Shown in pieces: positions 13,959 through 60,775 of a stretch of DNA of 64,000 nucleotides. The DNA lies in IMG/VR virus record IMGVR_UViG_3300036713_000599. One strand, written 5' to 3'. A program made the translations under genes and the position numbers. Position 1 is the stretch's first letter. Each line of letters opens with the position of its first letter. Under the pieces are notes generated by a model. The model did no database searches. It was not told the DNA's origin and worked only from the letters and a program-made list of their open reading frames with translations. This DNA comes from a virus (Duplodnaviria > Caudoviricetes).

Positions 13959-14123
13959 GGAACGGTTTTCGCGTCCTGGTAAACTACCCCTCCCTAAAGG
14001 GAGGGGCTTTGTGCCCCTCTGGTCCTAGAGAGAGTTGAGCGGGGCTCACGCCCCGCTGTTTCTGCTTCATCGGGCCCCCAACGGGGTAACCTCCACAGAC
14101 TGCTATACCGTGGTCTCCACGGC
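13959..14123 (-). ncRNA. Putative TnpB omega/reRNA (145-nt scaffold + flank-derived guide) carried by the MITE
   Basis: Minus strand has hairpins GCCGTGG..CCACGG, GCGGGGCGTGAGCCCCGC and CCCCTCCCTTTAGGGAGGGG, ending TAGTTTAC. TnpB reRNAs are known to derive from the tnpB 3' end/right end. Expression not shown. Confidence 0.55.
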
Positions 14124-14296
14124 AAGCGAATTTACCTGAAGTCCACAAGGCTCTCTGGGGGCAGCACTTCTGGTCACCAAGCTATTTAGCGGTTTCTTGC
14201 GGCGGGGCTCCTCTGGAAACGATCAAGAAATACGTTCAGAGTCAAAAGGGCGATTCCGCCCCGCCCTGAAGGACGGAGCCACCTCGCCCTCTTTCG
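13979..14296 (-). mobile_element. 318-bp non-autonomous derivative (MITE/PATE) of the IS605 at 59028-60766
   Basis: 13979-14123 reads identical to 59028-59172 (right end); 14119-14296 is near-identical to 60589-60766 (tnpA 3' part + left end). The two parts are joined at a 5-bp ACGGC microhomology. Confidence 0.95.
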
Positions 14297-14305
14297 GTGT
14301 ATAGT
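14296..14305 (+). promoter_or_regulatory. GGTG-TATAGT promoter motif at the MITE left-end junction
   Basis: Upstream of the AAA gene; the first G is supplied by the element end. Confidence 0.6.
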
Positions 14306-14339
14306 CCCATAAGATCGGATGGTGGCTCCTTGAGGCGGC

Positions 14340-15947
14340 ATGAAAGGAAAACGAATGAATCCTGAGATGATCTTCCACTTGAAGTCGATGACTCGTTTCA
14401 TCTACTACGTCACGGAAGAAGAAGACGTCTTCTTGGCGAAGTTGGACAAGGGGCTCAAGCAGTACAAGGATCACACTTTCGTTTTCAATTACGCCTTTGG
14501 ACTTGTCCCCTTAGAACGTCTCGTAGCTGATTGGAAGAATCATGCTCATCAGGAGAGTGATGCCGAGAGTCGGGATATCCAGAGTGCTCTTGTTCAGGTG
14601 TACCGGGCAGAGCCCAGGGAAAAACAGAACTTCTACATCTTCACGGACCCTGATCGGATGTTGGCTGATCCTATGGTTCAGCGCCGCTTCCTGAATATTG
14701 CCCACCAACTCCATCAGGACGATAAAATAGTCAAGATCATCATCTTTGTTGGACCTAGGCCGGTCATCCCCCCTAAACTTCAGCGCTATATCCAGGTCAT
14801 AAAAGATACGGGCTTAGAAGAAAAGGCTGTGATCAACCTCATAAAGAAGTTCTGCTGTGAGTTGAAAGATATAACGGTGCCAGAAAATCCAAAGGCACTA
14901 GCTGAACATTTTCGAGGTCTGACTCATTTCGAAGCAACATCAGTGCTGTCTCAGAGCATCATTCAGACCAAAGGGGACAAGAACAATCCCTGTAGGATTG
15001 ATCCTCGTATCATTTCGGAGTTTAAACAGTCGCAGCTCGCCAAGACGGACTTACTCAGCTTCGTCGACACTAAAGATACGACCTTTAAAGACGTCGGAGG
15101 CAACAACCGTTTCAAACAATGGGCTCTTAAGACGAGAGCCGCATGGACGCCAGAGGGTCGAAAATTTGGGTTATTCCCTCCTAAGGGGGTGCTGCTTATG
15201 GGGGTCTGGGGATGCGGGAAATCACTCAGCGTCAAGGCCATGGCCAGCGAGTGGCGTCTTCCTGTCGTATTGCTCGAAATGGGTAAACTTCGTAGTTCTG
15301 CCGTAGGTCAGACCGAGGCCAACGTGTATCGTGCCATTAACCTGATCGAGTCCATAGGTAGCTGCATGGTGTGGGTGGATGAAGCCGAAAAGAGCTTATC
15401 TGGCGGCCAGTCCAGTGCCATGAGCGACGCAGGAACAACTAGTAGGACGATCGGAATTTTATCCAACTGGCTCCAGGAGACAAAATCTCCCGTGTGTCTT
15501 GCCATGACGGCCAACAGTCTCAGTACGATGCCGATCGAATTTATCAATCGGATGGATGAACGGTTCTTTTTCGACTTACCGTCTGAAGATGAGAGGATCG
15601 CAATTCTCAAGATCCATCTTGCGAAACGAGGCCGCAACCCTGACGACTACCAGCTCGCTGTCCTCGCTGAGCACGCCAAAAATATGGTGGGTCGAGAAAT
15701 CGAACAGGCCATAGGGGCGGCTCTCGTAGACTCATTCATCGAAGGCAAGAACGACCTTGATGGAGAAATCCTTGTCAAACAATTGAAGACAAAACCTCGC
15801 ATCTTTAAGACAATGGCAGAGGAATTAGCCGAGGTTCTGGAGTGGGTGGGGTACGATGAAGACGTTGATGACGGTATTCGTGCCCGGTTCGCCTCCGCGT
15901 CTCATAGCCAGAATTTCACTAATTTCCACAAAACATCCGAGGAATAG
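14340..15947 (+). CDS. Ycf46-like AAA+ ATPase
   Basis: Degenerate N-terminal ATPase-like domain (YYVTEEEDVF), then DVGGNNRFKQW, PPKGVLLMGVWGCGKS (Walker A), VWVDEAEK (Walker B), AMTAN. Start could be ATG 14355. Confidence 0.85.
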   Translation: MKGKRMNPEMIFHLKSMTRFIYYVTEEEDVFLAKLDKGLKQYKDHTFVFNYAFGLVPLERLVADWKNHAHQESDAESRDIQSALVQVYRAEPREKQNFYIFTDPDRMLADPMVQRRFLNIAHQLHQDDKIVKIIIFVGPRPVIPPKLQRYIQVIKDTGLEEKAVINLIKKFCCELKDITVPENPKALAEHFRGLTHFEATSVLSQSIIQTKGDKNNPCRIDPRIISEFKQSQLAKTDLLSFVDTKDTTFKDVGGNNRFKQWALKTRAAWTPEGRKFGLFPPKGVLLMGVWGCGKSLSVKAMASEWRLPVVLLEMGKLRSSAVGQTEANVYRAINLIESIGSCMVWVDEAEKSLSGGQSSAMSDAGTTSRTIGILSNWLQETKSPVCLAMTANSLSTMPIEFINRMDERFFFDLPSEDERIAILKIHLAKRGRNPDDYQLAVLAEHAKNMVGREIEQAIGAALVDSFIEGKNDLDGEILVKQLKTKPRIFKTMAEELAEVLEWVGYDEDVDDGIRARFASASHSQNFTNFHKTSEE

Positions 15948-15950
15948 CGT

Positions 15951-17153: not shown

Positions 17154-17172
17154 TGCCTCCGCAAGGACAAGC

Positions 17173-23753: not shown

Positions 23754-23766
23754 TCGCCCTCCTTCG
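23754..23766 (-). mobile_element. Possible IS605 left-end tip remnant
   Basis: TCGCCCTCCTTCG-GTGTA matches the element left end TCGCCCTCTTTCG-GTGTA at 17 of 18 nt. Confidence 0.45.
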
Positions 23767-23775
23767 GTGTAAGGT
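23766..23775 (+). promoter_or_regulatory. GGTG-TAAGGT promoter motif
   Basis: Hexamer ends 10 nt before ATG 23782. Confidence 0.65.
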
Positions 23776-34279: not shown

Positions 34280-34289
34280 CTCCTACACC
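34280..34289 (-). promoter_or_regulatory. GGTG-TA promoter motif
   Basis: TACACC 34284-34289, 9 nt from the start codon at 34274. Confidence 0.5.
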
Positions 34290-45816: not shown

Positions 45817-45822
45817 AAGAAT

Positions 45823-46065: not shown

Positions 46066-46075
46066 GGTCTTATCT

Positions 46076-46720: not shown

Positions 46721-46735
46721 GCTAACCTTCCATGC

Positions 46736-46924: not shown

Positions 46925-46930
46925 AGATCT

Positions 46931-47503: not shown

Positions 47504-47508
47504 GGTTG

Positions 47509-47518
47509 TATTTACACC
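47509..47518 (-). promoter_or_regulatory. GGTG-TA promoter motif
   Basis: TACACC 47513-47518. Confidence 0.55.
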
Positions 47519-47570
47519 AATCATTCAAAGTCGAAGCCATCTTTACCGTTGCTGGCAAATCTTTGACATT

Positions 47571-47708
47571 ATGTCATCGGTCTCTCCGCCTTCGACTGAA
47601 CAAGCCACTGTTCTCGTCGAAACAGTGATGAGGTACACGGAATCTTTTAACCGAGTTTGTGAGGCCGGATGGGACGCCGAAAGAATCAACGGTCACCAAG
47701 CTATTTAG
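47571..47708 (+). pseudogene. Possible tnpB N-terminal fragment fused to the tnpA remnant
   Basis: PSTEQATVLVETVMRYTESFNRVCEAGW resembles an IS605 OrfB N-terminus (P..EQ..L.ET..Y..AFN.V...GW); it runs directly into the IS remnant. Confidence 0.4.
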
Positions 47709-47792
47709 CGGTTTCTTGCGGCGGGGCTCCTCTGGAAACGACCAAGAAGTACGTTCAGAGTCAGAGGGGCGATTCCACCCCGCCCTCCTTTG
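47691..47792 (-). mobile_element. IS605 remnant: tnpA 3' end + left end with deleted hairpin
   Basis: Near-identical to 60642 onward. The left-end hairpin was lost between two CGCCCT direct repeats; the remnant abuts GTGTA. Confidence 0.9.
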
Positions 47793-47801
47793 GTGTAAGC
47801 C
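47792..47801 (+). promoter_or_regulatory. GGTG-TA promoter motif
   Basis: Hexamer ends 10 nt before ATG 47808. Confidence 0.6.
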
Positions 47802-47807
47802 TAAAGC

Positions 47808-48233
47808 ATGATCGTACGTAAGATCAGTGTATCCTTGTATTGCCGTCATGAACAAGCCGTTCTCATCGTACGTGGCTGCGACCCTGATCTGTGGGAGCCT
47901 GTAGGAGGGGAAGCTTTTGACAATGAGACTCCTCTCGAAGCTGCGAGGAGGATTATCGTCGAGGACTATGGCTGTGTCAGTGCGTCCTTTCCCTTCATCC
48001 ATAAGGTCACAGGTGCCCCTCCTGGGCTCTTGTTGTACGAAGAGCACGTGGTGAAAAATACCCTTCGTCTTAACTTCGCTTTTATTGTCGACATCCCTAG
48101 TAAAATTCTTTCGTTTAAGAGAGGATTGACAGGAATGCTGTGGTTGACTAGTGTCTCAGAACTTCCTACTGAAAAAGTACCTATTTATGTCCAAGAAGCA
48201 ATCCCATACGCCCTGCGGGCAGGAATCCACTGA
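47808..48233 (+). CDS. Nudix-fold protein with degenerate Nudix box
   Basis: LWEPVGGEAFDNETPLEAARRIIVEDYG lacks the REUXEE glutamates. Confidence 0.6.
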   Translation: MIVRKISVSLYCRHEQAVLIVRGCDPDLWEPVGGEAFDNETPLEAARRIIVEDYGCVSASFPFIHKVTGAPPGLLLYEEHVVKNTLRLNFAFIVDIPSKILSFKRGLTGMLWLTSVSELPTEKVPIYVQEAIPYALRAGIH

Positions 48234-48555
48234 CGTCGGTGTAAGTAGAACCATGTGTATTGATTGCGTTTTCAGTGGGCATGTGTGCCGGCGAGGCCTG
48301 TGTGAGGGAGCGGCTCAATCATTTTTTCGCAGTGCCAAAGGCACTGTCTGGCCTCTATGTTCTGCCTGTGCCGAGCAGCACAAGCGAGTGAGTGTGAGGC
48401 TTGCCAAAAAGGGCAAACTGGCTGTAATGCCCCTCGCTGGTGCGATGTTTGACATTCCTTTAGATGACCTTGAGACCTTAGCTACTTGGCGGGACCAAGA
48501 TCCCGAAACAGTTTCAAGCATCGTCCAGGCTGTGGACGACTCGGTGAAAGATTAG
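48151..48555 (+). CDS. Cys-rich hypothetical protein
   Basis: CIDC..C..C..LCSAC; start uncertain. Confidence 0.45.
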   Translation: MSQNFLLKKYLFMSKKQSHTPCGQESTDVGVSRTMCIDCVFSGHVCRRGLCEGAAQSFFRSAKGTVWPLCSACAEQHKRVSVRLAKKGKLAVMPLAGAMFDIPLDDLETLATWRDQDPETVSSIVQAVDDSVKD

Positions 48556-48866
48556 CCGTGAATAGCCGCAGCTGCCATCTTGAGCAGCGTCTTGTTTTCG
48601 GCCGCCTCTCGGTCGACTTCCTCTACTTTGTCACGAAGAGCCCGGCCGGCCTTACCAATGGTAGCTAGCTCATTTCCTGCCATCCCTCGGCTCCTGCCAC
48701 GAAGAGCTTTGTTGGCCGCCTTCTTTGCGGCATAGGCCTTGCGGAGAGCCCCTAGCTCATTCTTCGCCTTAGCAAGCTCTTTGGCTCCAACGGTTGTCCC
48801 CCAGCAATGGGGGCAAAGGACCATTCCGATTTTCCCGTTGTTGCAATGTCCGCATGTATTACGCAT
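48552..48866 (-). CDS. DnaJ-type CxxCxG zinc finger + coiled coil
   Basis: CGHCNNG..CPHCWGT followed by an Ala/Lys-rich helix. Confidence 0.6.
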   Translation of the reverse strand: MRNTCGHCNNGKIGMVLCPHCWGTTVGAKELAKAKNELGALRKAYAAKKAANKALRGRSRGMAGNELATIGKAGRALRDKVEEVDREAAENKTLLKMAAAAIHG

Positions 48867-49037
48867 GATGCCCGTACTACGATCGCCACAGACAACAGTT
48901 CGGAAAAAATTTCAAAATAGACCTGGTTGCAGGCTCCCGCATGGTACGGGCGGAGAGATGGCGGCCGTGCTGGTGGTGATATCAGCTAACTCGGGATAGA
49001 GCCCGGTAAGAAATCGATCCAAGATATTCCCGCTTTT

Positions 49038-49637
49038 CTAAATAAAGTCGTGACGTGCGAACAATGACCGCACCCCTACCCCTGTCTCTAGTTTGATTTC
49101 CCGCACACCACCCTCTTCACGGTCTACGACGACACATATCCCGACAACTTTGTGGCCCGCCTCTTGAAGGGCTCTGACGGCTCGAATAGTGGAGCCTCCT
49201 GTTGTAACGACATCCTCTACGAGTACGACGTTCGCAGGTTTTTTGCCGTTATGGTGAGGGAAAGACGCCTCCACCAATTTGCTCGTGCCGTGGTTTTTTG
49301 GCTTCTTTCTTACATATATAGCAGATAGCGGCGGAGGTGTTTTTTTCTTCCCACTCACAGGTGCTAGCACCCTTTCAAGGTACGACGCGTACGCCACCGC
49401 ACTGGCGAGAGGGCAGCCCCCAAGTTCGACACCTGCTACAGCATCGACACCATCGAATTCATGGACTGCCTCAAAGAGCAATTGGCCTAGCTTCCAGTGA
49501 CCTTCTGCTGACAGTGCCACAGGCCGAACATCGATGTAGAAATCGCTTGTTTTGCCCGAGGCGAGCTGGAACTCACCCTTTTTAAAACTCCATCGTTTGA
49601 ACAACGACAGAAGATCCTTTTTCATGTCTTTTGTCAT
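49038..49637 (-). CDS. pyrE: Orotate phosphoribosyltransferase
   Basis: GEFQLASGKTSDFYID, VRKKPKNHG, PRPP-binding VVLVEDVVTTGGS, VVDREEGG. Confidence 0.92.
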   Translation of the reverse strand: MTKDMKKDLLSLFKRWSFKKGEFQLASGKTSDFYIDVRPVALSAEGHWKLGQLLFEAVHEFDGVDAVAGVELGGCPLASAVAYASYLERVLAPVSGKKKTPPPLSAIYVRKKPKNHGTSKLVEASFPHHNGKKPANVVLVEDVVTTGGSTIRAVRALQEAGHKVVGICVVVDREEGGVREIKLETGVGVRSLFARHDFI

Positions 49638-49794
49638 TTCATCTCCTTGTATTGCCCGAGAGAGCGGGTAGATCGAAGAAAGGTACCAACTTTTCAAGTT
49701 CTTAGAGTCGGTTCGGTCGATCTTCCGTCTCGATGACCAAAGGAACCGGCAGATCATCAATTATCGTGGGAAACTCACTGTCATTCATGGCACC

Positions 49795-50100
49795 TCACCT
49801 CGAAGGGAAGAGTTGTTCCTGGTATGCATGGAAGGTTGCCAAGACTTCGTCGAGAGTGAAGTTCTCGTCGACTTCGAAACTCACAGACTTGGTGGCGACA
49901 ACCACAGCGTATCCCTTCCCCACCCATACCCCAGGGGATGCTTCAGAGCCTAATCGGTCACGATGAAGTTCTTGAGCTGTGAACCCCGTGTAGTACAGCT
50001 CTAGTTCGAACCTCACGCGAAACGCATGGTATTCTTGGATCCACTCGACCAGAGGTAGGCGATCCGAAATGGGTACAGTAGCCATTATTTCGTTGGTCAT
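49795..50100 (-). CDS. Hypothetical protein
   Basis: Start taken at MTNEIM. Confidence 0.5.
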   Translation of the reverse strand: MTNEIMATVPISDRLPLVEWIQEYHAFRVRFELELYYTGFTAQELHRDRLGSEASPGVWVGKGYAVVVATKSVSFEVDENFTLDEVLATFHAYQEQLFPSR

Positions 50101-50265
50101 ATTCCATCTTGTCCATGGTGAAGCCCCTGTCGTCGGATGTCTTGGGCAGCGATCCATTCTTTGCGAGACTGCACTACGTGTCCTTCCACGCCTCGGTTAT
50201 TGTCTCCTGTGTCCAGGACCTGGCGTAAAACGGGTCCCGGTCCTCTTCTAACATGCCGTGAGAGG

Positions 50266-50472
50266 CTACTTGCGAGAGAGAAAGAGAGCTACAGCCCGTT
50301 CGACGATCGACGCCTTCTTCGGCTTCCCTCCTTCTGTCTTGAACTCGTAGTCTGGCCTCATACGTTTGTAGATCCCCATGACATAGTCCCACTCTTCGGC
50401 GTGGCCTTGCTCCTTGGCGATCTCTTTTGCCTTGTCCCACTTATGCTCGTCTCGTTTCGTTTTCGTCGGCAT
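50266..50472 (-). CDS. Small helical (ChaB-like) protein with C-terminal VERAVALF tag
   Basis: KWDKAKEIAKEQG..EWDYVMGIYKRM. Confidence 0.6.
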   Translation of the reverse strand: MPTKTKRDEHKWDKAKEIAKEQGHAEEWDYVMGIYKRMRPDYEFKTEGGKPKKASIVERAVALFLSRK

Positions 50473-50494
50473 ACTACCAAGAGTGAAAAGGAAA

Positions 50495-50770
50495 CTAAAA
50501 CGAGTCTTTCAAGGCGATCTTGGCAATCTCAGCCTTTGCCCGGCCAGGGTCTGCCCCGATGATAACGGTCGCCAAACACACATGGCGGCCGTACTCATCT
50601 ACGTCATCCTGTAACTTCGGAGGCATGAGAGTGCATACAGGCAACACTTCCATGAGGTGGGCTCCTAGGTTATTTGCCAGCTTCAAAGCTGCTTCCTCGG
50701 TGGGCCCTGCGACTTTTATGTGCGCACGATGAAAGGCCGTCTGGTAACTAACACCGACGATAGTCCGCAT
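50495..50770 (-). CDS. Hypothetical protein
   Basis: 91-aa ORF in the minus-strand run. Confidence 0.5.
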   Translation of the reverse strand: MRTIVGVSYQTAFHRAHIKVAGPTEEAALKLANNLGAHLMEVLPVCTLMPPKLQDDVDEYGRHVCLATVIIGADPGRAKAEIAKIALKDSF

Positions 50771-51127
50771 GTTTCCGTTCCCCGAGGTGGTAAGAATCAG
50801 TAAGATGCCTCACCTCGTGAGGGGGCGCCATTTGACTTAAACTAGGATTTCTAAGTCGTCTGCTCTCTAACCAGAACTTTTTGGGGGACTGACCATCTCG
50901 ACGGTTCATGGTTGCAGGGACTCCTACGCCCTCTTCTCTTCTTCTCGGCATCGACTGCCTTCGATAGGGCTTTCAAGTCCTGTGACGACAGTTTGCTGAA
51001 ATCTAGCTTCAAGTTTCTCTCTCCTATGTTGGGCCCAGGTGGGGTTACTCACTATTTCTACTCAAGTGGTAAAAATAGATTCAGTAAAATACAACGTTTC
51101 CGTGAGGAATCAAGTTCATTTTGTAAG

Positions 51128-52000
51128 TCAGTGCGTATTTAAAGCCAAAGCACAATCAAGAGCCTCCTCGACCTCCCTGTCAGTAAGAATTTTGGCTACC
51201 TCGAAATGCATTCCGTCCAACCGGTCGTATCTGGGGGGCCATCCATGACCTCCCCAATAAAAACCAAATTTGTTCGCGAGGGGGACAAGTTCTCTCACAC
51301 AGTTCGCCTCGCCCACGAGAGCCGGTTGTCTTCCTAAGTAGTTGCCTGCGACATTTATGTCAAAAGCTGTTCCCCAAGAATGGTTGGACAGAATCGTTCT
51401 CGAACCTCGTACGAAACGAGGGACCCAACTACCAGCCCAGCTATTAATTTGGCAGATGTGCCCCGCGTCATCCCACGCTTGGAATAACCCCAATAACTGC
51501 GCTTTAGCTTTCTTGTTCCATAAAATGCGACAACTTTTTGGAAGCCCTGCAACACCCATCCCCTTAAGTTGCGGGATCACCATGTCTGTCAGGTTGGCTT
51601 TTTTCCATTTAGAAGGTATGATGACCCTTTCGGGGTTGTTCTTCGTGGGGGCGGGAGTGTATGGTATCTCTCCGAACAAGGTCACCCTCCGTCTCCAGTT
51701 AGCAGGTTTGAGATCCTTGGGATAAGGAGGCCACCCAGGGCCTTCTATGTTTTCTCGGTCCGGCTCAATGACCTCAAACCCCCCTTCCATTGCGACGCCC
51801 CATGTGCGGTTACCTACTACACCGTCATCATTCAAGTAGGACGCACGTTGGTATTTTTTGGTCGCCTCTTCCGTTGCTGGGCCAAAAGAACCGTCGACTT
51901 CCCCAATATAGTGGCCGGCCCCCAACAAGAAATTCTGCCACTTGCGAACCAGAGGCCCTCTGGACCCTTTTCTGAGATATGTCAGCATTATTGATGCCAC
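51128..52000 (-). CDS. Modular endolysin: peptidoglycan-binding domain + M15-family peptidase
   Basis: LRKGSRGPLVRKWQ..VDGSFGPATEEATKKYQ..DDGVVGNRTW; R..LSNHSWGTAFDIN; GFYWGG..DGMHFE. Confidence 0.9.
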   Translation of the reverse strand: MASIMLTYLRKGSRGPLVRKWQNFLLGAGHYIGEVDGSFGPATEEATKKYQRASYLNDDGVVGNRTWGVAMEGGFEVIEPDRENIEGPGWPPYPKDLKPANWRRRVTLFGEIPYTPAPTKNNPERVIIPSKWKKANLTDMVIPQLKGMGVAGLPKSCRILWNKKAKAQLLGLFQAWDDAGHICQINSWAGSWVPRFVRGSRTILSNHSWGTAFDINVAGNYLGRQPALVGEANCVRELVPLANKFGFYWGGHGWPPRYDRLDGMHFEVAKILTDREVEEALDCALALNTH

Positions 52001-52018
52001 CTTTCTGTGCGTCGTCTG

Positions 52019-52058
52019 GTGAACCAGCCCTCCCTAAAGGGGGGCTTGTGTCTCTCTG
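52019..52058 (-). mobile_element. Degenerate IS605 right-end remnant
   Basis: GTGAACCAGCCCTCCCTAAAGG vs element GTAAACTACCCCTCCCTAAAGG (3 mismatches in 22); flanked by TG and GTGTA. Confidence 0.7.
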
Positions 52059-52080
52059 GTGTACTTATCGATCATACACC
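52058..52080. promoter_or_regulatory. Palindromic pair of promoter motifs GGTGTA-N11-TACACC between divergent genes
   Basis: Minus-strand copy reads GGTG-TATGAT toward the endolysin; plus-strand copy faces the gene at 52093. Confidence 0.5.
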
Positions 52081-52092
52081 ACGAGGAGCCAC

Positions 52093-52413
52093 ATGATAGA
52101 AAACAAGACCTCAAAATTGGTGATATCCAAAACCTTGCTGAGACTACGGCAAGGACTGAAAGCTGCCAGCACCAAAAAAGAAAAAGTAGGTATGATGTTA
52201 TCCATTGCGACTCAATTCAATCGAGAGCATGACATCTTCAACGGAGACTTCAACGAAGGATACCATGCCCACTTCGAGGAATTCGAGCAAGCACGTATAG
52301 TTTTCCAGCAAGCGGCTATGCGTCTCGCTCGTCTGGCTGTAAGCGTCATCGATGACGAGTTTTCGGAACCGCTCGAAACGGACAACTCTCCACCTGAACA
52401 GGCCCCAAACTAG
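52093..52413 (+). CDS. Hypothetical protein
   Basis: ATG with SD GAGGAG. Confidence 0.6.
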   Translation: MIENKTSKLVISKTLLRLRQGLKAASTKKEKVGMMLSIATQFNREHDIFNGDFNEGYHAHFEEFEQARIVFQQAAMRLARLAVSVIDDEFSEPLETDNSPPEQAPN

Positions 52414-52492
52414 ATCACCGAAAATTCTCCCCAACTGAGAGGGAGCTGTTAGGGCAAAGTCCGACATGTAAAGAAGATCGCGAATTTTGTTC

Positions 52493-53002
52493 TCACTCTA
52501 ATTCTTCTTTCAAACATTGAACCACTCCTTCTAATCTTCGACGCTGGATGTCCGAGATCCTCACTAGCACATCTCCTTTGCCGCCACGGAATCCTAGCGC
52601 CCTGTGGCTTTCGACGACATAGATATGCGTGGGCACCCCAATGCCCAGAAGGACCTCACAGACCTCTTTCCACTGGATACGGCCCGTTCTGAATTTCAGC
52701 ACGCGAGCTTCGTCCGGGCACAGGGCCAGAATCCCGAGGGATTCCAGTCCCATCGTATGAGCATGCTCCTTGACAAGAGGACCGATATCGCCCACTGATG
52801 CCATGAGGCCGTGAAAGATTTCTAGGGAGGATACGAAGGCTTGCTTAACCTTCTGCCTTTCTGGGTTCATCTTATCTCCAGGGCGGGGAGGAGGTCCCGC
52901 GTCGTGAGGCACAGAACTCGGTCTGATCGAGATCTTGACTCCTACAAAGCCTCGGCCTTCAGGTCGAGGTAGTTGACTCACAAGGTAGACTACACCGATC
53001 AA
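52493..53002 (-). CDS. Hypothetical protein
   Basis: 169-aa ORF overlapping the upstream stop. Confidence 0.55.
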   Translation of the reverse strand: MIGVVYLVSQLPRPEGRGFVGVKISIRPSSVPHDAGPPPRPGDKMNPERQKVKQAFVSSLEIFHGLMASVGDIGPLVKEHAHTMGLESLGILALCPDEARVLKFRTGRIQWKEVCEVLLGIGVPTHIYVVESHRALGFRGGKGDVLVRISDIQRRRLEGVVQCLKEELE

Positions 53003-53379
53003 ACGCCCTGCTGTTCTTTGATGTTGCTGAGCCAGTGAGCTGCGAACACGGCCTGTTCACGCTGGGCTCTCGGATAGTAGCCTTCTACCGCTCCGCCTTG
53101 ACCAAAGTCGATAGCTCGCTGGTAGTAGCCAGTATTCATCTGAATCGCGACGGGATAGAACTTCCCGTCGGGGCCGCGCCAGAATTCCATATCAGGATCG
53201 GGAACAAGGTCGCCGCACTGACTGTAATAATGGGCCATCGAGAACCGGTCCTCACTGAGACGCTCAACGCTCAAAGGCATATATACATCACTGTTGGCAA
53301 TCTTCCTGCTGGTGCCAGGTGCCATGCCTTCAATGAGCTTGGTGAGAATCTTGGTGGCTTTTTTGTTGATAGCACGCAT
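52999..53379 (-). CDS. DUF6908/DUF1249-like protein
   Basis: YMPLSVE..SMAHYYSQCGDLVPDPDMEF signature recalled from this family. Confidence 0.6.
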   Translation of the reverse strand: MRAINKKATKILTKLIEGMAPGTSRKIANSDVYMPLSVERLSEDRFSMAHYYSQCGDLVPDPDMEFWRGPDGKFYPVAIQMNTGYYQRAIDFGQGGAVEGYYPRAQREQAVFAAHWLSNIKEQQGV

Positions 53380-53762
53380 TGTGCTGGTACTACGAGGGAA
53401 GAGACGACGAGTTCGGAAAAAGATCAAACTTTTTTCGTCAGAACAGATGTCGAACCAAGGATAGCCTTGATGCTCATAGGTGGCAGCTATGACCACGACA
53501 GGAAGAGGCTGCTCGCCCGTGACAGTAGGCCCTGCCATCGAATTGACGATATGTACAAAGCAACAACGAACTCCATCCGACTTACAGAAGACTTCCCAAA
53601 TCGACATGGCGGGCGAACTATTCTGCAGAAGTTCCGAATATCTCAGCCAGTTCTTCATCGGTCACCTCTACTGGCTTTTTGTCGGTCACCTGTTCAGGTA
53701 GAGGGCGCTTCGGACTCAGCGGAGTAACAAGAGCCCATTTCTCTTCTTCAACCACACACTGT

Positions 53763-54053
53763 TTAGGATTGCTTTTCTGTCCACTCGGGATCTAGTTGCC
53801 CGCTCAGGACATCAGCCATTTGCCTAGCCCTCTTACGAGCTACAGCTAGATTCATGTAGACTTCCGGCCCAAGCCTGACACCTGGAATGACAACCTCACC
53901 TTGGGGGCGGTCTTCCGATAGCATGACAGCTTCGACCACAAAGTCTTTGTAGCTCTCGTGCTGCTGTTCCTTCACTGTAATCTCCCAAGTCTCGCCGAAT
54001 CTATAGGAGCTGTCACCAAGCCCACCGGAAAAACCTGGAGGGCGCTTAATCAT
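53763..54053 (-). CDS. Hypothetical protein
   Basis: Start taken at MIKRPPG. Confidence 0.4.
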   Translation of the reverse strand: MIKRPPGFSGGLGDSSYRFGETWEITVKEQQHESYKDFVVEAVMLSEDRPQGEVVIPGVRLGPEVYMNLAVARKRARQMADVLSGQLDPEWTEKQS

Positions 54054-54135
54054 TATGGATGTTCGGACCATGCTCGTACTACGGATCGAAGACGCACAAG
54101 TTCGGTGAAAAATCATCTTATGCTCAGCACAGATT

Positions 54136-55617
54136 ATGAGCCTATCTGAACTTGTTAAAAGGGACCCTAAGAGAGCCTTTGGCCTTATTTTACAAGAAAA
54201 GATTGCAGGTGGTATTGACGTGTCGGAACCCGTCCAGCCCCTGTTGCCAGGTATGTCGGGCATGTTGGGCTCCATGTCCTCGTGGGATATAGCACATGGA
54301 GCCTACGCCTTTGACTATATCGCGGGTTATGACAAGGATCCACGAGTCAAGAAGTTTGCAAACGACCTCGCCACAGAATACGCTCGTCGGTTTGCTGACT
54401 GGCTTGGCTATGTCTTCCTGAACCGAGCAAACATGACGAAGCACAGCAAGCCTATGAAGGCGTTGCAGGCGTCGCTCGGTGACTGGGTCGAGGCTATTCC
54501 TGAAATGCTCATGCAAGGCAAGCCCAAGGTCCTCAGTGAGTTCGTTCCAAGCGACGCTCGCAAGTTTCTAGACATGAAGGTCGTCGATGCCATTGGCCGA
54601 AAAATCTTAAAAGTCGTACAACAAGACTGGGCCAAATCCTCCCGGACCGCACGGGGAGGGCTCAGGGACCTACCCATTACTTACAATCCTAGGTACAAGC
54701 GGTACGAAATCCCCAAGTCCAAGTTAACATATCCTCATCGGAACAAGCTCCGCGACCTCGGTTTCGACACAAATCGTAATCTCGACGTATGGTGGACGGA
54801 GATACTAGAATCCGCCGCCATTCGAGCCCTGCCACAAGCAGCAGACATAAAAAGACAGAGCGAGCCAGCTCCAGCTCCAAAAGGGGACCCCTCCGACTGG
54901 TTCTTTGATGACTGGCTTCCTGGTAACATCCAACGCTTCTCGAAGGTGTTCAATGCCTTCGGGCGAGGCGCGGGCATCCCGTACGAGTTCGACTTCACCG
55001 TCTCGGGCAAAGATGTTGAGGTGAGCTTCAGGCGAAACGTCAAGACGATAAAGGACGCTGTGGCCGAACTGACGGCTCGGTACGGGGGAGCAAACGACCG
55101 AGACGGTTGGATGACGGCCATTGCGGCATGGAAACAGCTCATGTCAGCCTCGGGCAAGGCAGCTATACATGCGGTAGACATGGCTAACAATCTCGAACAC
55201 ACCCACGGTGCAATGATGGAGCACTTCCCTCCAGGTGTGCGCCGATGGTACCCTAGTTTCCTCGACTACAAATACACTGCAAGTGCCATCCAGATGATCA
55301 AGCGAATCAAAGACGAGGACCTTCGAGTTGTAGCAATGGAACTTCTGCCTCTACGTGACCGTAAAGAAAGACTCGTCATTGAAGATAAGAGCCACAGGAC
55401 GCCAAAAGGACTTGCTTTGGAGATTAGTTCGCAGGCAGGCAAAGCGAACAAGAAAAAAATGCTCAGGGGCGTAAAGGACCGTTATCCTGACATGTACGAT
55501 GACGTGGTAAAGAACCTGGAGGAGAAGGGGTTGTTCCTGACGGCGTCCCTCACTCCCCGACGCATTGTGTCAAGGTACCTGCACGAGGCCAAGCTGTCTC
55601 CACAGCAACGCGGCTAA
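54136..55617 (+). CDS. Hypothetical multidomain protein with C-terminal TASLTPRRIVSRYL tag
   Basis: 493-aa ORF; no catalytic motif recognised. Confidence 0.75.
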   Translation: MSLSELVKRDPKRAFGLILQEKIAGGIDVSEPVQPLLPGMSGMLGSMSSWDIAHGAYAFDYIAGYDKDPRVKKFANDLATEYARRFADWLGYVFLNRANMTKHSKPMKALQASLGDWVEAIPEMLMQGKPKVLSEFVPSDARKFLDMKVVDAIGRKILKVVQQDWAKSSRTARGGLRDLPITYNPRYKRYEIPKSKLTYPHRNKLRDLGFDTNRNLDVWWTEILESAAIRALPQAADIKRQSEPAPAPKGDPSDWFFDDWLPGNIQRFSKVFNAFGRGAGIPYEFDFTVSGKDVEVSFRRNVKTIKDAVAELTARYGGANDRDGWMTAIAAWKQLMSASGKAAIHAVDMANNLEHTHGAMMEHFPPGVRRWYPSFLDYKYTASAIQMIKRIKDEDLRVVAMELLPLRDRKERLVIEDKSHRTPKGLALEISSQAGKANKKKMLRGVKDRYPDMYDDVVKNLEEKGLFLTASLTPRRIVSRYLHEAKLSPQQRG

Positions 55618-55920
55618 GAAAGTAGACAGGAGAGGGGCGGGCAGGCGAGGAACAGTATTCCGCCCGAGTTTCAGCGTGCCGAACAAGGCTTCTCCGCTTC
55701 GAGAAACATAAGAATAGAAGTGAGCCTCTGCTTACCGTGACAACTCCCCTACCTGTCTCAGACGGCTAGGAAGGGGCTTCTCAGATCGTCGGCGAGCCTG
55801 ACGGCTGCACCTCCCTGAAGGCGCTGCCCGCGCCAGGAAGTAAAGACAACGGAGCTGGAGGAGCACGCGGCGGAGTAATAAATTTCACCTATGACGTATT
55901 TACCACCAAATGTACGGTAG

Positions 55921-56127
55921 TTACCTACAAGGAGGGTGTCGACCTATTTTGGCCCACGGGCTTGGGCTGTATAATAGTCTCCCAGTGTCGTATTCCCGGA
56001 TGGCTTGAAGTACTTCACACACTGCGTCCCAGGTAGCCCTTCGAAGGTTAACATTTTCTGGGATCCGCGCACTAGTGACAATGTATCTGATGGTAACTTC
56101 AGTAGGTGCGGTGATTGAGGTAGTCAT
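55921..56127 (-). CDS. Hypothetical protein
   Basis: 68-aa ORF. Confidence 0.45.
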   Translation of the reverse strand: MTTSITAPTEVTIRYIVTSARIPENVNLRRATWDAVCEVLQAIREYDTGRLLYSPSPWAKIGRHPPCR

Positions 56128-56160
56128 GTCTTTGCAAAAACCGTTACTGATGGCTACAAC

Positions 56161-56325
56161 TTAGCATTTTTTGGGGGGACGAACAGTCTCGGCGTCGGAG
56201 GGAGCAATGCCTGTACTAGAAGTGCCTTCGTCATACTTAGCTTGTAGTTCTTTTTCTGCCAAAATAGCGGAAAAAGGCATTCGGGGCGGAAGGGGGAGTT
56301 TGTTGATGTGGGTTTCGTTTGCCAT
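56161..56325 (-). CDS. Hypothetical protein (54 aa)
   Basis: Hand-translated MANETHINKLPLPP...RPPKKC; TACACC motif at 56340. Confidence 0.4.
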   Translation of the reverse strand: MANETHINKLPLPPRMPFSAILAEKELQAKYDEGTSSTGIAPSDAETVRPPKKC

Positions 56326-56551
56326 AGTCGTACTACGTATACACCAATTAAGAGTTCGGACAAAAAGATTGGTGGTGTACCATTTTGTGGTAACCGGTAT
56401 CTGAGCACAAGACCGTTCGAACCTCCTGACACCGACATCCCTCTCTGTCGCGAATGCCGCAAGAGTTAGAGCAGTACCAGCCTGGGAGGACGGTGCGAGT
56501 TTCTCCTGGGGCGGCTTGGGCCTACAAGGGATTTTAGTTCAATTTAGCCAA

Positions 56552-57055
56552 TTAGTCCTTCTTGACTCTCTCGTGCCAAGAAGTGTCTAGCTGTGAAGAT
56601 TGAGAGACGGGGCGTAGATCCATGCTATGCTTGAATATCCGTTGGCAGGTCAATGGGAAACATTCATTGAACCATTGCCCGCAGCTAGCACATTGGAAAT
56701 TCGTGGCGAGGCCTCCACTCGGGCCCTTGAATAATCTCGTGTGGCCACAGTCGGGGCAAATTCCGCTAGAAAGCAAAGAACCTTCCTGCTGACTCAAGTC
56801 CTCACAAATCTTCCCATCGGATTTCACGGTCTTATCGGGTCGAGGAGCCACATCACTCTCCGTGTCAACCCAATTGAGAGCCATAGCACCTCCCTCTAAC
56901 GTGTGTATGAGATCCAGAAAAGTCTCGTGGAAGCTCACTGAATTTTTGCTTCGGAGGGCGACGCTCCCGTCAGTAAAAACAATTCCCTCAGCAACCGTCT
57001 CCCACGTGTCTTTGAGCCGACCAAGACGAAACCGTCGCATTCTATGTCGTTCCAT
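56552..57055 (-). CDS. Hypothetical protein with zinc ribbon
   Basis: CPDCG..FKGPSGG..CASCG; start 10 nt from the promoter motif. Confidence 0.7.
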   Translation of the reverse strand: MERHRMRRFRLGRLKDTWETVAEGIVFTDGSVALRSKNSVSFHETFLDLIHTLEGGAMALNWVDTESDVAPRPDKTVKSDGKICEDLSQQEGSLLSSGICPDCGHTRLFKGPSGGLATNFQCASCGQWFNECFPLTCQRIFKHSMDLRPVSQSSQLDTSWHERVKKD

Positions 57056-57266
57056 AATAGGATCCTACACCAGAAATTTCGCTCGCAGTCGCCATTCGAA
57101 CCATTCCCTCAGGGCCTTCCCATAGGACCACCGTATTGGGTAAATCGGTGACGGCGGGAGCTTCTTGTAGCCTGACAATCATAAACTCGTGGCCTTCAGC
57201 TTCGCATGTATATGCAGCCCCGATCAGAGTCATACCTTCCAACCGTTCTAGGAATTCTGGCTTCAT
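57042..57266 (-). CDS. Hypothetical protein
   Basis: MKPEFL start 10 nt from TACACC 57277-57282. Confidence 0.55.
   Translation of the reverse strand: MKPEFLERLEGMTLIGAAYTCEAEGHEFMIVRLQEAPAVTDLPNTVVLWEGPEGMVRMATASEISGVGSYYGTT
57062..57071 (-). promoter_or_regulatory. GGTG-TAGGAT promoter motif
   Basis: TACACC 57066-57071, 10 nt from ATG at 57055. Confidence 0.65.
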
Positions 57267-57272
57267 TTTTTC

Positions 57273-57282
57273 TCCATACACC
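57273..57282 (-). promoter_or_regulatory. CCTCCTTT-GGTG-TA promoter motif
   Basis: 10 nt from ATG at 57266. Confidence 0.6.
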
Positions 57283-57355
57283 AAAGGAGGTGCATAAAAA
57301 TACCGAACTCCTGTTGACTGCAGCCGTAGTAACAACACGACCAAAAAGGAGAGCC

Positions 57356-57628
57356 ATGAACCCCAACGACGATGCATATTTTCGAAGCAGACGCCCACCA
57401 GAACCTCTTAAAGCTCAGGTAGGCGATGAGGTTGCCTACACACGTTATTTCCTCAAATGTATCGGGGTCGTTGCCACGGATCCCATGTGGAGAAAACGAG
57501 GCATCGTGACCGAGATCAGTGGGAGGATCGCATACATCCAATGGGACGATGACGGCGAGGACGAGGTTACGCCTGTCCAGCTCACCAACCTCGCCCACCC
57601 TGGGCCTAACCTAGCCTTTAATGAGTAG
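57356..57628 (+). CDS. SH3/KOW-like small protein
   Basis: QVGDEVAY..RGIVTEI..AYIQWDD; SD AGGAG. Confidence 0.55.
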   Translation: MNPNDDAYFRSRRPPEPLKAQVGDEVAYTRYFLKCIGVVATDPMWRKRGIVTEISGRIAYIQWDDDGEDEVTPVQLTNLAHPGPNLAFNE

Positions 57629-57689
57629 ATCCGATGTAGGTGCTGCCACAGAACAGCACTTTGTTCGTTAGGATCTAGGTCGATCGGCT

Positions 57690-58361
57690 TTATTTAGAGA
57701 AGCGGAGGTATCTCCGGCCTTGTGCCGGAGGATGGGCCCGACCGATCGTCTCAACAACAATCTTCCAAGTCCCCTGAAAAGTTAGCTGGGAGAGCAACAC
57801 ACATTCACTGTGTGAAACAGTCTTACCATGATCGTCGAGGTATTGGCGTGTTTTCAAACACTTCTGGTAGGTCGCTTTTTTGACCATACCAGGAAGCTTC
57901 TCGATTTCAAACAAGGATGTCCGGTTATCGAGAGCAGTATGGTATCCTGCATCAAAAGACGCCATGGAGGTAGACTTAAGCCTGTTCTGGCTTTCGTGCC
58001 GCCCTTCTTTCTCTAACTCTGTGTCTAAAAATGACGGTACGGGACAAGAGGGGCAGTACTCACGAACCAAGAGGGTGCATGCTCCGTCCGATGATGCTGA
58101 CACAGCATTTCGAAACAGGGTGTGGGCATCCCTCACACCAGAGACGAAACCATTATTAAAATCCCTGGACCGTGTCCTTACCAAGTTAGACGGGACCTGT
58201 TCGAGGAACTTCTTCAGACCGTTCCTGTATATAGGACTCTGAGTTGAGAGAAGCTCCGGTTTGGTCGTGTCTACCTTAAGAGGGCACGCACGAGGCGGGG
58301 CTTTTTCAACAGGAGCCTGGCAACAGAAGGTGAGGGGGAGGACAAGGGCGATAGCTTTCAT
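57690..58361 (-). CDS. Putative secreted or lipoprotein
   Basis: MKAIALVLPLTFCC signal-like start, 11 nt from TACACC 58373-58378. Confidence 0.55.
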   Translation of the reverse strand: MKAIALVLPLTFCCQAPVEKAPPRACPLKVDTTKPELLSTQSPIYRNGLKKFLEQVPSNLVRTRSRDFNNGFVSGVRDAHTLFRNAVSASSDGACTLLVREYCPSCPVPSFLDTELEKEGRHESQNRLKSTSMASFDAGYHTALDNRTSLFEIEKLPGMVKKATYQKCLKTRQYLDDHGKTVSHSECVLLSQLTFQGTWKIVVETIGRAHPPAQGRRYLRFSK

Positions 58362-58450
58362 TGTTATCTGCCTACACCGAAAATGGTGGCAGGTTGCCAA
58401 AGGGACGAAAGATTTTCCGAACTTCTGTAACCTCGTCACGTAGTACGGGC

Positions 58451-58690
58451 ATGACGACCAAGACCAAAGTCAAAAACTTCATGAAGAAGAACAACATCCC
58501 CGGAACCGTTTCCGGTCGCGGGCGGGACTGGGAAGTCGAACTCCCGAACGACGAGGCCCATGATCGGTGGAACGAACTCACAACATTCCCGAACGGCGGC
58601 TACCGCAGCGGGTATGGATCCTGGGTCCTGTCGCCCTCATATAAGAGCAAGGGCGACTTCAACAACCGTTCGAGCGCTTGGCACTACTAG
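58451..58690 (+). CDS. Hypothetical protein
   Basis: 79 aa from MTTKTK. Confidence 0.6.
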   Translation: MTTKTKVKNFMKKNNIPGTVSGRGRDWEVELPNDEAHDRWNELTTFPNGGYRSGYGSWVLSPSYKSKGDFNNRSSAWHY

Positions 58691-58780
58691 GAGGCCATCA
58701 AAGGCGATTTTTGAGGAAACAAGGTCAGGGCGCAAGCCCGCCTCACAGCCTATTGGATGGCCGAATCCCTGAGAGGAAAA

Positions 58781-59077
58781 ATGAACAAATTCAGCACCAC
58801 CGAAGCATACCGCGAAGCGAAAGAACTACACAAGCAGGCGGAAGAGACCTTCAACAAAGCGAAAGACGCCTTGAAGGCGGCCCAGGATATCCTAGAAGAC
58901 GCTAAAACGGTCCGTGATGCAGCACACTCCGTTCAAGACATCGAGGACTACGAAGAGGCGTTATCGACGCTCTACGACCTTCTTGATTACTACGGCCTCG
59001 CTAAAGCCATTCTTGCCCACGATCGTGGTAAACTACCCCTCCCTAAAGGGAGGGGCTTTGTGCCCCTCTGGTCCTAG
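58781..59077 (+). CDS. Coiled-coil protein whose C-terminus is supplied by the IS right end
   Basis: SD GAGG/GGAAA before ATG 58781; the frame reads into the element after HDRG. Confidence 0.65.
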   Translation: MNKFSTTEAYREAKELHKQAEETFNKAKDALKAAQDILEDAKTVRDAAHSVQDIEDYEEALSTLYDLLDYYGLAKAILAHDRGKLPLPKGRGFVPLWS

Positions 59078-59172
59078 AGAGAGTTGAGCGGGGCTCACGC
59101 CCCGCTGTTTCTGCTTCATCGGGCCCCCAACGGGGTAACCTCCACAGACTGCTATACCGTGGTCTCCACGGC
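59008..59172 (-). ncRNA. Putative TnpB omega/reRNA with guide CACGATCGTGGGCAAGAATG
   Basis: Scaffold overlaps the tnpB 3' end and right end; guide inferred from the flank, as in ISDra2. Confidence 0.6.
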
Positions 59173-60295
59173 TGAGAATCACCTTGGCAGCATTGACGTC
59201 GGCGTTATCTGCATGGCCACAGGCCGTGCAGATAAACTCTGACTGTGAGATCCGTGACGCTGCGTCCACGGTCTCACAGCAACTACAGGTTTGCGATGTA
59301 TAGTGCGGAGGTACCTTGATCAAGGTACCTCCCGCCCAATCCAGCTTGTACTGGATCATCCACGCAAGAAGGCCCCATCCCGAGTTCAAGATACTGCGGT
59401 TGAGGCCAGCTTTCTGTCTTACATTCCGGCCAGGTAATTCAGATGTGCCGGACGCGGACTTCGTCATGTTCTTCACCTGGAGATCCTCGATCACCACTGT
59501 GCCGTGGCTTTTAGCGTAGTGGAGAGCGATCTGATGCAGCAGATGATTGCGTTGTCGCCGCACCTTTCGATGCAAGCGAGCTACTCTAAGTTGAGCCTTT
59601 CTGTGATTGTTTGAGCCTTTCTTTTTCTTTGACAGGGCTCGCTGAGCCCTGGTTAGTCTTTGCGTCGACGTCCTCATTCCCTCTGGACCGTCAAATACGT
59701 TCCTGTCTGAATCTGCAACGAGATGTTTGACTCCACGATCCAAACCTACTCTGCCGGGTTTGCGGAGCCGTTCCTCTATCTCGACTTCGCAGGAGATTGA
59801 AACGAACCATTGGTCTGCTTCGCGCACCAATGCACACGTTTTACCTTTACCTTCTAGTGGGCGGTGCATCTTGGTTTTTAGCACACCAAGTTTAGGGAAT
59901 CTCACATCTCCTTCTTCTGTGACCCGCCAGTACCTAGGGTGTGGCTCAATCAAAGAGACATTGTCTCTCCCCTTGCGCTTAAAGTGTGGAGGCTTTGAAA
60001 TTTTCTTAAAACCCCGCTCCCAAGCCTTAGCGAGTTCCTTCAGAAGTTGATCGAGGACATTTCGAGGAACATCTGCAAGCCACTCAAACTCAGGGTCCTT
60101 GAGAACTTCGGTCAGTTCCTTCATTTGGTCGAAGGCCGACAGGTACTCCTTAGGGACACGACTTAGGCCAGACCGTCTGTGCTCATGAGCACAGTTCCAC
60201 AGAAATCGTAAGGATCCTTCCCATCGAGCAAGCCGCTCGGCTTGCTCGGGCGTTGGGTAGACGCGGTAGCGAAAAGACTTGCGGACGATTCTCAT
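59033..60295 (-). CDS. tnpB: TnpB RNA-guided endonuclease (copy 2)
   Basis: FRYRVYPT N-terminus, VGLDRG, VIEDL, TSQTCSCC..ICTACG, NADVNAA; RuvC D/E/D intact. Confidence 0.95.
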   Translation of the reverse strand: MRIVRKSFRYRVYPTPEQAERLARWEGSLRFLWNCAHEHRRSGLSRVPKEYLSAFDQMKELTEVLKDPEFEWLADVPRNVLDQLLKELAKAWERGFKKISKPPHFKRKGRDNVSLIEPHPRYWRVTEEGDVRFPKLGVLKTKMHRPLEGKGKTCALVREADQWFVSISCEVEIEERLRKPGRVGLDRGVKHLVADSDRNVFDGPEGMRTSTQRLTRAQRALSKKKKGSNNHRKAQLRVARLHRKVRRQRNHLLHQIALHYAKSHGTVVIEDLQVKNMTKSASGTSELPGRNVRQKAGLNRSILNSGWGLLAWMIQYKLDWAGGTLIKVPPHYTSQTCSCCETVDAASRISQSEFICTACGHADNADVNAAKVILSRGDHGIAVCGGYPVGGPMKQKQRGVSPAQLSLGPEGHKAPPFREG

Positions 60296-60313
60296 CTCAC
60301 CTATAGTTGGTAT

Positions 60314-60739
60314 ATGACACAAAATGATTCATACCGCAAGGGGAGACATGTGGTTTTTGAGTTACACGTTCACTTGGTCTTCGTGCCAAAGTACCGTAGG
60401 GGCGTAATCACTCAGCGAGTCTACGACATCCTCCATGGGGCTTGGCAGAAAGTCTGTAAAGACTTCGAGGTTGTCTTGGAAGAGGCAAACTTCGAAGACG
60501 ACCATGTTCACCTCTTGGTCAACTATCCTCCAAAGGTCTCATTGTCGAAGCTTGTTAATTCGCTCAAGGGGGTGTCCGCTCGCCGAGTACGGCAAGCGAA
60601 TTTACCTGAAGTCCGCAAGGCTCTCTGGGGGCAGCACTTCTGGTCACCAAGCTATTTAGCGGTTTCTTGCGGCGGGGCTCCTCTGGAAACGATCAAGAAG
60701 TACGTTCAGAGTCAAAAGGGCGAGGTGGCCCCGCCCTGA
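60314..60739 (+). CDS. tnpA: IS200/IS605 Y1 (HUH) transposase
   Basis: HLVFVPKYRR, HUH DHVHLL, LKGVSAR, WSPSY..catalytic IKKYVQSQ. Confidence 0.95.
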   Translation: MTQNDSYRKGRHVVFELHVHLVFVPKYRRGVITQRVYDILHGAWQKVCKDFEVVLEEANFEDDHVHLLVNYPPKVSLSKLVNSLKGVSARRVRQANLPEVRKALWGQHFWSPSYLAVSCGGAPLETIKKYVQSQKGEVAPP

Positions 60740-60765
60740 AGGACGGAGCCACCTCGCCCTCTTTC

Positions 60766-60775
60766 GGTGTAGAGT
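60766..60775 (+). promoter_or_regulatory. GGTG-TAGAGT promoter motif at the IS left-end junction
   Basis: Hexamer ends 10 nt before ATG 60782; the first G is from the element. Confidence 0.65.

Follow-up and report, generated by a model that had tools for sequence, protein, structure and literature searches.

An IS200/IS605 element that probably uses TACAC, within the GGTGTA gene-start signal of a huge phage, as its target

In the IS200/IS605 family, the transposase TnpA inserts 3' of a motif adjacent to the left end (LE) of the element, the nuclease TnpB reads the same motif as its target-adjacent motif (TAM), and the guide is the flank beyond the right end (RE) (PMC8612924, PMC10055086). 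The elements ISGst1-5 of Geobacillus stearothermophilus are a described case in which TnpA and TnpB or IscB share this motif (TTTAT, TTCAT) and the RE carries a transposon-encoded motif; their nuclease restores excised copies by homing, and palindrome-associated transposable elements (PATEs), which resemble miniature inverted-repeat transposable elements (MITEs), occur beside the full elements (PMC10055086). Here we analysed a 64,000-nt stretch of DNA (the window) from a Caudoviricetes virus (IMG/VR record IMGVR_UViG_3300036713_000599), which carries an intact 1739-bp IS200/IS605 element at 59028-60766 on the minus strand. The element shares with the IS605 group (Helicobacter pylori IS605, IS608 and ISDra2) divergent tnpA and tnpB genes coding for a Y1 HUH transposase and TnpB, subterminal hairpins, the lack of terminal inverted repeats and of a duplicated target, insertion on the 3' side of a fixed motif of 4-5 nt at the LE, and conservation of the tnpB 3' end and RE, the putative RNA scaffold. 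By every feature tested it is an ordinary IS200/IS605 member, and the family identity and orientation assumed in a first-pass annotation of the window were borne out by the Y1 TnpA, TnpB and both ends. What is new is its niche: it lands on a motif that forms the core of the signal by which the phage clade marks its gene starts.

We conclude that this element and its decayed derivatives probably use TACAC, inside the GGTGTA gene-start signal of the phage clade, as their target; TACAC is the reverse complement of GTGTA in GGTGTA-N10-ATG. The window was searched by blastn with the element and by mismatch-tolerant searches for LE and RE junctions, and copy counts cover these 64 kb of a ~283-kb huge phage. 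The results revealed six traces, namely the full copy, a MITE, a mini element, two remnants and one tip, and no further copies were found in the window by either kind of search. Five LE junctions were present (14284-14301, 23754-23771, 34284-34301 on the minus strand, 47780-47797 and 60754-60771; chance expectation in the window 0.08), together with four RE junctions (13978, 34325 on the minus strand, 52018 and 59027; chance expectation 0.00). GTGTA directly followed all five LEs, and a remnant that retains only RE sequence was also joined to GTGTA. Additionally, the loose end of a contig from a public run held one more LE-like copy outside 44100-64000, also running into GGTGTA. The six traces listed in the first-pass annotation, and its statement that TACAC lies 5' of the LE in every copy, were thus confirmed (five LE junctions, one fused remnant and one copy off the window). 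That annotation had also suggested comparing TACAC sites in promoters with those elsewhere; within the window, 6 of ~25 promoter-type sites were occupied compared to 0 of ~78 others (Fisher P = 1.2e-4). About three quarters of the TACAC sites lay in coding sequence, and the non-coding ones were nearly all promoter-type.

The border of the RE was set by related elements. On the plus strand, TG preceded all four REs, which corresponds to CA on the element strand. Six elements in bacterial metagenome-assembled genomes (MAGs), with TnpB proteins 45-56% identical to the one described here and a TnpA 69% identical in L053, the one that has TnpA, aligned with the window element through the tnpB 3' region and the RE hairpin to (A/T)TTAC and differed from the next base. 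One MAG contig ended exactly at TTTAC, and two IMG/VR copies of a related RE shared ...TAGTTTAC and diverged right after it. Because the related REs diverge after TTTAC, the RE stops there and the shared CA is flank; the empty sites therefore reconstruct to TG/GTGTA (TGGTGTA). Both points agree with the first-pass annotation. An alternative border, NTAC/AC, was rejected because element-free promoters carry the full GGTGTA.

The elements with this LE hairpin in the IMG/VR set usually stood behind TTCAT or TTCAC and began with C, their borders being inferred and not proven copy by copy; in single-copy bacterial relatives, LE borders, and with them target motifs, cannot be fixed without second copies. 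TACAC is one base from TTCAC/TTCAT. Scans of IMG/VR with the exact left end and with the DNA polymerase of the window gave no match, and a scan with a 19-nt LE word, in a metagenome collection that does not include the contig of the window, returned 49 contigs, all of them chance or unrelated coding matches. Under the pairing of guide and cleavage site assumed for IS608, the AAAG before both hairpins would fit TTAC at the RE and not TACAC at the LE; we draw no conclusion from this.

The derivatives ranged from a MITE to a single tip. The MITE (13979-14296, minus strand, 318 bp), identified by blastn, consists of the initial 145 nt on the RE side joined to ~175 nt of the LE side, and aligned with the full copy over 147 nt at 100% on the RE side and over 183 nt at 96.7%. 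Its joint was also found in public contigs, and it is followed by GTGTA-TAGT, a putative promoter with a leader before an AAA ATPase gene. The two-tip element (34289-34324, plus strand, 36 bp), found by blastn and mismatch-tolerant searches, consists only of a 13-nt LE tip and a 24-nt RE tip, and its LE adjoins GGTGTA-N9-ATG of a 56-aa minus-strand gene. The LE-side remnant (47691-47792, minus strand; 82 nt at 96% identity) retains the tnpA 3' end and an LE hairpin that lost one half when the DNA between two CGCCCT repeats was deleted; the gene at 47808, with its GTGTA-N10-ATG, comes directly after it. The RE-side remnant (52019-52058, minus strand, ~45 nt), found by local alignment, is joined to GTGTA in a divergent promoter region and aligned to the RE with a score of 51, compared to a maximum of 22 in 2000 shuffles. 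The last trace (23754-23766, minus strand), found by searches and shuffles, is a 13-nt LE tip with 12 of 13 bases matching that abuts GGTGTA-N10-ATG of gene 23782; it is marginal by score, which 5 of 2000 shuffles reached, but lies end-to-end at GGTGTA.

The LE remnant at 47760-47792 and a separate one, seen in a loose contig end at 47723, share the CGCCCT-repeat deletion that removes half of the LE hairpin. This shared deletion reflects either recurrent slippage or the spread of a dead subfamily.

A syntenic relative without the element was then compared with the window. This relative (L067) is represented by 60 kb read from a 372-kb metagenomic contig and was picked via the AAA ATPase beside the MITE, whose homologue is 79% identical; its synteny covers the window from ~1 to 44.5 kb, and the sites at 47.7, 52.0 and 59.0 kb lie beyond. 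It contains 14 GGTGTA-N9-11-ATG sites, and within these 60 kb neither element sequence nor an LE-tip-like CCCTCYTTY prefix before any GGTGTA was found. The site of the MITE reads as bare gtgatcGGTGTAtgaag..., leading into the ATPase gene, the tip site as cttgccGGTGTA-N11-ATG without the tip, and the site of the mini element as gatcctcGGTGTA-N10-ATGGACCCAAACGAATGC, with the same small gene and nothing inserted. Since GGTGTA stands free of the element at three orthologous sites, GTGTA is phage sequence and the traces are insertions. That GTGTA instead belongs to the element, which would carry and spread a promoter, could be proposed because GTGTA follows every LE; with element-free relatives bearing GGTGTA at the same orthologous positions and spacing, and ~19 unoccupied promoter-type GGTGTA sites in the window itself, we give this proposal practically no credence.

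The same comparison bears on the shortest traces. The 13-nt tip and the CGCCCTCYTT prefixes might be a native upstream part of the promoter that happens to resemble the LE, as two further promoters in the window carry a loosely similar CCTCCTTTG prefix. The relative argues against this, with the prefix at none of its 14 sites and a tip-site orthologue that lacks it, and so do the promoter at 1499, which has no significant similarity to the LE, and the graded series of remnants (318, 102, 45, 36 and 13 nt), which fits progressive deletion. A native origin of the short traces is therefore very improbable.

Around the mini element, the relative has an extra 134-aa gene, flanked by the small divergent gene on one side and by the homologue of the open reading frame (ORF) at 34353 on the other (L073 2442-3232 compared with window 34353-34679), so that gene content around this divergent promoter differs between both phages; ORF 34353 had no Pfam match.

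We next describe the signal itself. GGTGTA occurred at 45 sites in the window compared to 23 expected, and GGTGTA-N9-11-ATG at 20 compared to 1.0 expected; none of 300 Markov simulations gave more than 4. The spacing was exactly 10 in 14 of these 20 sites, and real ORFs begin at the ATGs. With +1 set at the A of ATG, the TA of GGTGTA lies at -12/-11, where the two best-conserved bases of the -10 element stand before leaderless mRNAs. Most spacers lacked a Shine-Dalgarno sequence, and no -35 element was apparent. In the relatives fetched, GGTGTA was found at the same spacing for the orthologues of 10 of 11 window genes with the motif, with differing spacers and upstream bases. Conservation in 10 of 11 genes despite diverged spacers is the pattern of a phylogenetic footprint and marks a functional signal. 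The motif was frequent in relatives, and the distant huge phage LR745208 was without it (5 matches compared to 3 in the control). From geometry, enrichment and conservation we infer that GGTGTA-N10-ATG is a leaderless-mRNA promoter, a conserved signal belonging to a huge-phage clade.

An action of the motif at the RNA level, in translation or processing, has some points in its favour: many sites lie in tight same-strand gene arrays, where some overlap the stop codon of the gene before, nothing like a -35 element can be seen, and GGTG is similar to the 3' portion of an extended Shine-Dalgarno sequence. However, GGTG lies 12 nt from the start codon, which is too far for Shine-Dalgarno pairing, and most spacers hold no such sequence of their own. 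The fixed 10-nt spacing with TA at -12/-11 matches leaderless promoters, the TATAGT-N6-ATG of tnpA shares this geometry, and the motif also stands before leaders that have their own Shine-Dalgarno sequence, as at the MITE site. We therefore consider an RNA-level signal quite unlikely and keep to the promoter reading below.

Regarding mechanism, we propose that the element moves as a single strand and would insert directly 3' of TACAC on its top strand, landing between -17 and -16 on the template strand and leaving the core, and its distance from the start codon, unchanged. The native upstream bases would be replaced by the LE (...CTCTTTCG), which resembles the native (T/C)-rich context. Expression of the downstream gene would presumably be retained. 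Insertions at the ~75% of TACAC sites that are genic were not seen and would most simply have been lost, and later deletions would trim copies to tips left at the promoter. TnpB, with RNA from the tnpB 3' end and RE, would cut TACAC followed by ~16-20 nt of upstream-gene sequence in element-free genomes; for the full copy this target would be TACAC and then the last codons of ORF 58757. Cutting would restore or spread the element by recombination, and such homing, like the TACAC TAM, is predicted from the family rule. A further, unlikely possibility is that promoter melting supplies single-stranded TACAC for TnpA and that transcription thereby directs insertion.

Two claims of the first-pass annotation on this process held in part. 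It had described the landing sites as intergenic harbours, which does not hold strictly, as the putative promoter at the full copy overlaps the end of ORF 58757, whose C-terminus is changed. It had also held that the LE terminus leaves CGGTG-TAnnnT to the downstream gene; the core and the N10 spacing are intact and ...TTTCG resembles the native context, whereas the T of TAnnnT is present in only about half of the sites. Its proposal to look for empty alleles in related phages gave the bare GGTGTA at three orthologous sites, with a mismatch in two of them that is taken up next.

Several points weigh against targeting of TACAC at a promoter. In both orthologous sites with an RE, the relative has C at -17 where the reconstruction has T. 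The bases before GGTGTA in the relative are mostly TC, and its flanks are too diverged for a base-for-base comparison of empty sites; in the window, T precedes GGTGTA in ~11 of 16 unoccupied promoter sites, so a T in all four reconstructed sites would be unremarkable if these were promoters. The empty allele of the phage itself was not found in public contigs, which break at repeats: among those compared with the window stretch 44100-64000, none joined 59027 to 60767, and because they stop at the repeat ends they are uninformative on empty sites. The full-copy site was not syntenic in the relatives fetched, including a second one (L070-L072). The promoter role of GGTGTA is itself putative. The entire motif is common to every surviving site, so that fewer than five bases (for example NNCAC) could suffice for the specificity. 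Finally, 64 kb of ~283 kb were read, and genic copies elsewhere are possible.

The pattern needs little special evolution. With ~93% of the genome coding and non-coding TACAC sites nearly all promoters, the loss of harmful insertions explains the distribution without special targeting, and the closeness of TACAC to TTCAC/TTCAT means that the fit could arise easily. A stronger claim is that the specificity was selected to match the promoter core, giving the element promoter-preserving safe harbours and a TAM that competitors without the element are unable to lose by mutation, with TnpB cutting co-infecting relatives at promoters by means of the full-copy and MITE guides. In its support, one change in specificity would be enough for the match, clade-wide conservation of the motif means that relatives offer targets, TnpB looks catalytically intact, and the MITE RE is identical to that of the full copy over 147 nt. 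Nevertheless, selection for the match is indistinguishable from the survival of tolerated insertions. The C at the first LE base, by which an insertion would regain the first G of GGTGTA, is found throughout the family and is no special adaptation. Each guide fits ~16-20 nt at one locus of a single lineage, the only relative found has intergenic DNA too diverged for cutting, and no polymorphic empty site was seen in public contigs. Selected docking of this kind appears unlikely. Its furthest extension, in which the TAM is locked in an essential clade-wide promoter core, relatives cannot escape by TAM mutation without promoter loss, and the element, with guides from the full copy and MITE-type derivatives, acts between co-infecting huge phages as an RNA-guided gene drive at several loci or as an exclusion weapon, is more doubtful still. 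Probable use of TACAC within the gene-start signal, with survival of the tolerated insertions, is the reading that we carry forward.

The intact element has the gene layout of its family. Its top strand is the minus strand of the window, with the LE at 60766 and the RE at 59028; tnpA faces outward to the LE and tnpB faces the RE. Its limits were set from the sequence, from Pfam matches for both genes, and from the MITE and the other copies. The tnpB gene (59033-60295, minus strand) codes for a 420-aa RNA-guided nuclease matching the Pfam families HTH_OrfB_IS605, OrfB_IS605 and Cas12f1-like_TNB (zinc ribbon). D186, E270 and D366 were invariant in an alignment with 24 homologues and, aligned to solved TnpB-type nucleases, lie at the DxG, xED and DxNAA motifs of the RuvC triad. 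A PDB search with TnpB returned ISDra2 TnpB (8H1J and 8BF8, E ~1e-35), to which it is only distantly related. The tnpA gene (60314-60739, plus strand) codes for a 141-aa Y1 (HUH) transposase (Pfam Y1_Tnp, E 6e-41, model 2-121 of 121), with HVH and the C-terminal Tyr region visible in the translation. Upstream of it, ccTATAGT-N6-ATG places TA at a distance of 10 nt from the ATG, which repeats the leaderless geometry of GGTGTA. Judging by these features, the element looks active.

The left end (60715-60766, minus strand), supported by DNA folding, starts with a CGAAAGA linker followed by a 20-bp hairpin with the inner loop region CCGTCCTTCAGGGCGGGG. This hairpin folded at -24.3 kcal/mol (z = -6.75), and the inner hairpin is also present in related elements. 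The right end (59028-59056, minus strand), supported by folding and alignments, is an 8-bp hairpin, CCCCTCCC-TTTA-GGGAGGGG, followed by the terminus TAGTTTAC, which contains the transposon-encoded motif TTTAC. Both hairpins lie 7-8 nt from the termini, and the LE and RE are dissimilar, which excludes terminal inverted repeats. Similarly, no target-site duplication was present, as the flanks (...TG / GTGTA...) showed no repeat across four complete copies. The RE sits in the conserved tnpB 3' region, a putative source of the guide-RNA scaffold; this region (tnpB 3' end and RE) was conserved among seven elements with stem changes on both sides, and a search of Rfam with the tnpB 3'/RE region gave no match.

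At the full copy, both flanks carry a predicted function. The RE-side flank (59008-59027, minus strand) starts with CA, comprises the last codons of ORF 58757 (window 58757-59077), and would be the guide of this copy by the position rule for TnpB (PMC8612924, PMC10055086). On the other side, 60767-60784 (plus strand) holds GTGTA-N10-ATG of gene 60782-61090, that is, the occupied core of the putative promoter and the start codon. The insertion turned the end of ORF 58757 from ...HDRG-VE-stop into ...HDRG-KLPLPKGRGFVPLWS-stop; the ORF lost its last two codons and stop and gained a 16-residue tail read from the RE of the element.

The window also contains genes for a family A DNA polymerase, SNF2 and DnaB helicases, a ClpX-like ATPase, a Dam methylase and two endolysins, and the phage sequence is present in public sediment metagenomes as well. 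Cluster data place the window on a contig of 282,752 bp. Selfish elements are plentiful in this phage. Another element, unrelated to the first and with tnpB only, occupies 12760-13978, with tnpB at 12813-13937 on the plus strand and a product 26% identical to the IS605 TnpB. It sits in the terminator T-tract after a 109-aa gene and is missing from the relative L067, and a copy at a different site in L070 (12480-12929) is 93% identical over the first 123 residues. Both copies follow GGGGTT, and in both tnpB is preceded by GG(C/T)GTA-gagtctaagtg-ATG; the nuclease of this element thus seems to be under the start signal of the phage itself. The DNA polymerase (7390-11565) has 1391 aa compared to 981 aa in the relative and contains an inserted LAGLIDADG domain, and DnaB (4129-6147) has 672 aa compared to 486 aa, with an intein splicing domain match below the Pfam threshold; both inserts are likely inteins without a counterpart in the relative. 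At 61100-64000, a tandem array of DUF7666 paralogues had numerous alternative joints and variant contigs in public runs, a sign that the paralogues recombine or that strains differ by rearrangement.

The closest relatives outside the window are the unnamed elements that share the CCGTCCTTCAGGGCGGGG hairpin, found in MAGs (L053 Polyangiales, L054 Syntrophus and L058) and in IMG/VR. They resemble the element described here in the inner LE hairpin, an LE starting with C, and an RE hairpin followed by TAGTTTAC or similar, and TnpB of the seven closest MAG elements is 51-58% identical; unlike it, they have TTCAT/TTCAC and not TACAC as their apparent motif, and none of those examined sits at GGTGTA. 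The 18-nt hairpin core CCGTCCTTCAGGGCGGGG occurred in at least 119 IMG/VR contigs (L075-L193), in LE-type contexts behind TTCAT/TTCAC and in RE-type contexts followed by TAGTTTAC, GTCAA and others, including short single-hairpin elements.

Set beside the IS605 group, the element differs in its target, TACAC compared to TTAC (IS608) and TTGAT (ISDra2), and in the position of that target inside a conserved phage promoter-like motif. ISGst1-5 differ from it in being bacterial and chromosomal, in their AT-rich motifs and in having no reported promoter link. A literature search returned no paper on an IS200/IS605 target inside a phage promoter or on a TACAC TAM, its incomplete coverage making this weak evidence of novelty. 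The locus offers a natural example of a transposon with a short fixed target that persists in a gene-dense virus, where the landing motif lies in a recurrent class of non-coding sites and the signal is left intact. It also offers a TnpB with a predicted TAM that is not AT-rich (TACAC) and predicted natural guides against DNA close to promoters. Should the element home from one co-infecting phage to another, RNA-guided selfish inheritance would extend from bacterial chromosomes to virus populations.

Other mobile elements are useful as a comparison, without implying membership: for Tn7 at attTn7, insertion sequences at repetitive extragenic palindromic (REP) sequences, and the free-standing homing endonucleases of phages, the landing site is harmless or conserved, and its being fixed makes the element less harmful to its carrier. 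For phage homing endonucleases, nuclease-driven spread into element-free co-infecting genomes is established (review PMC13565253). Unlike all of these, the element described here has as its landing site the short, multi-copy core of a putative promoter, and its nuclease would be RNA-guided.

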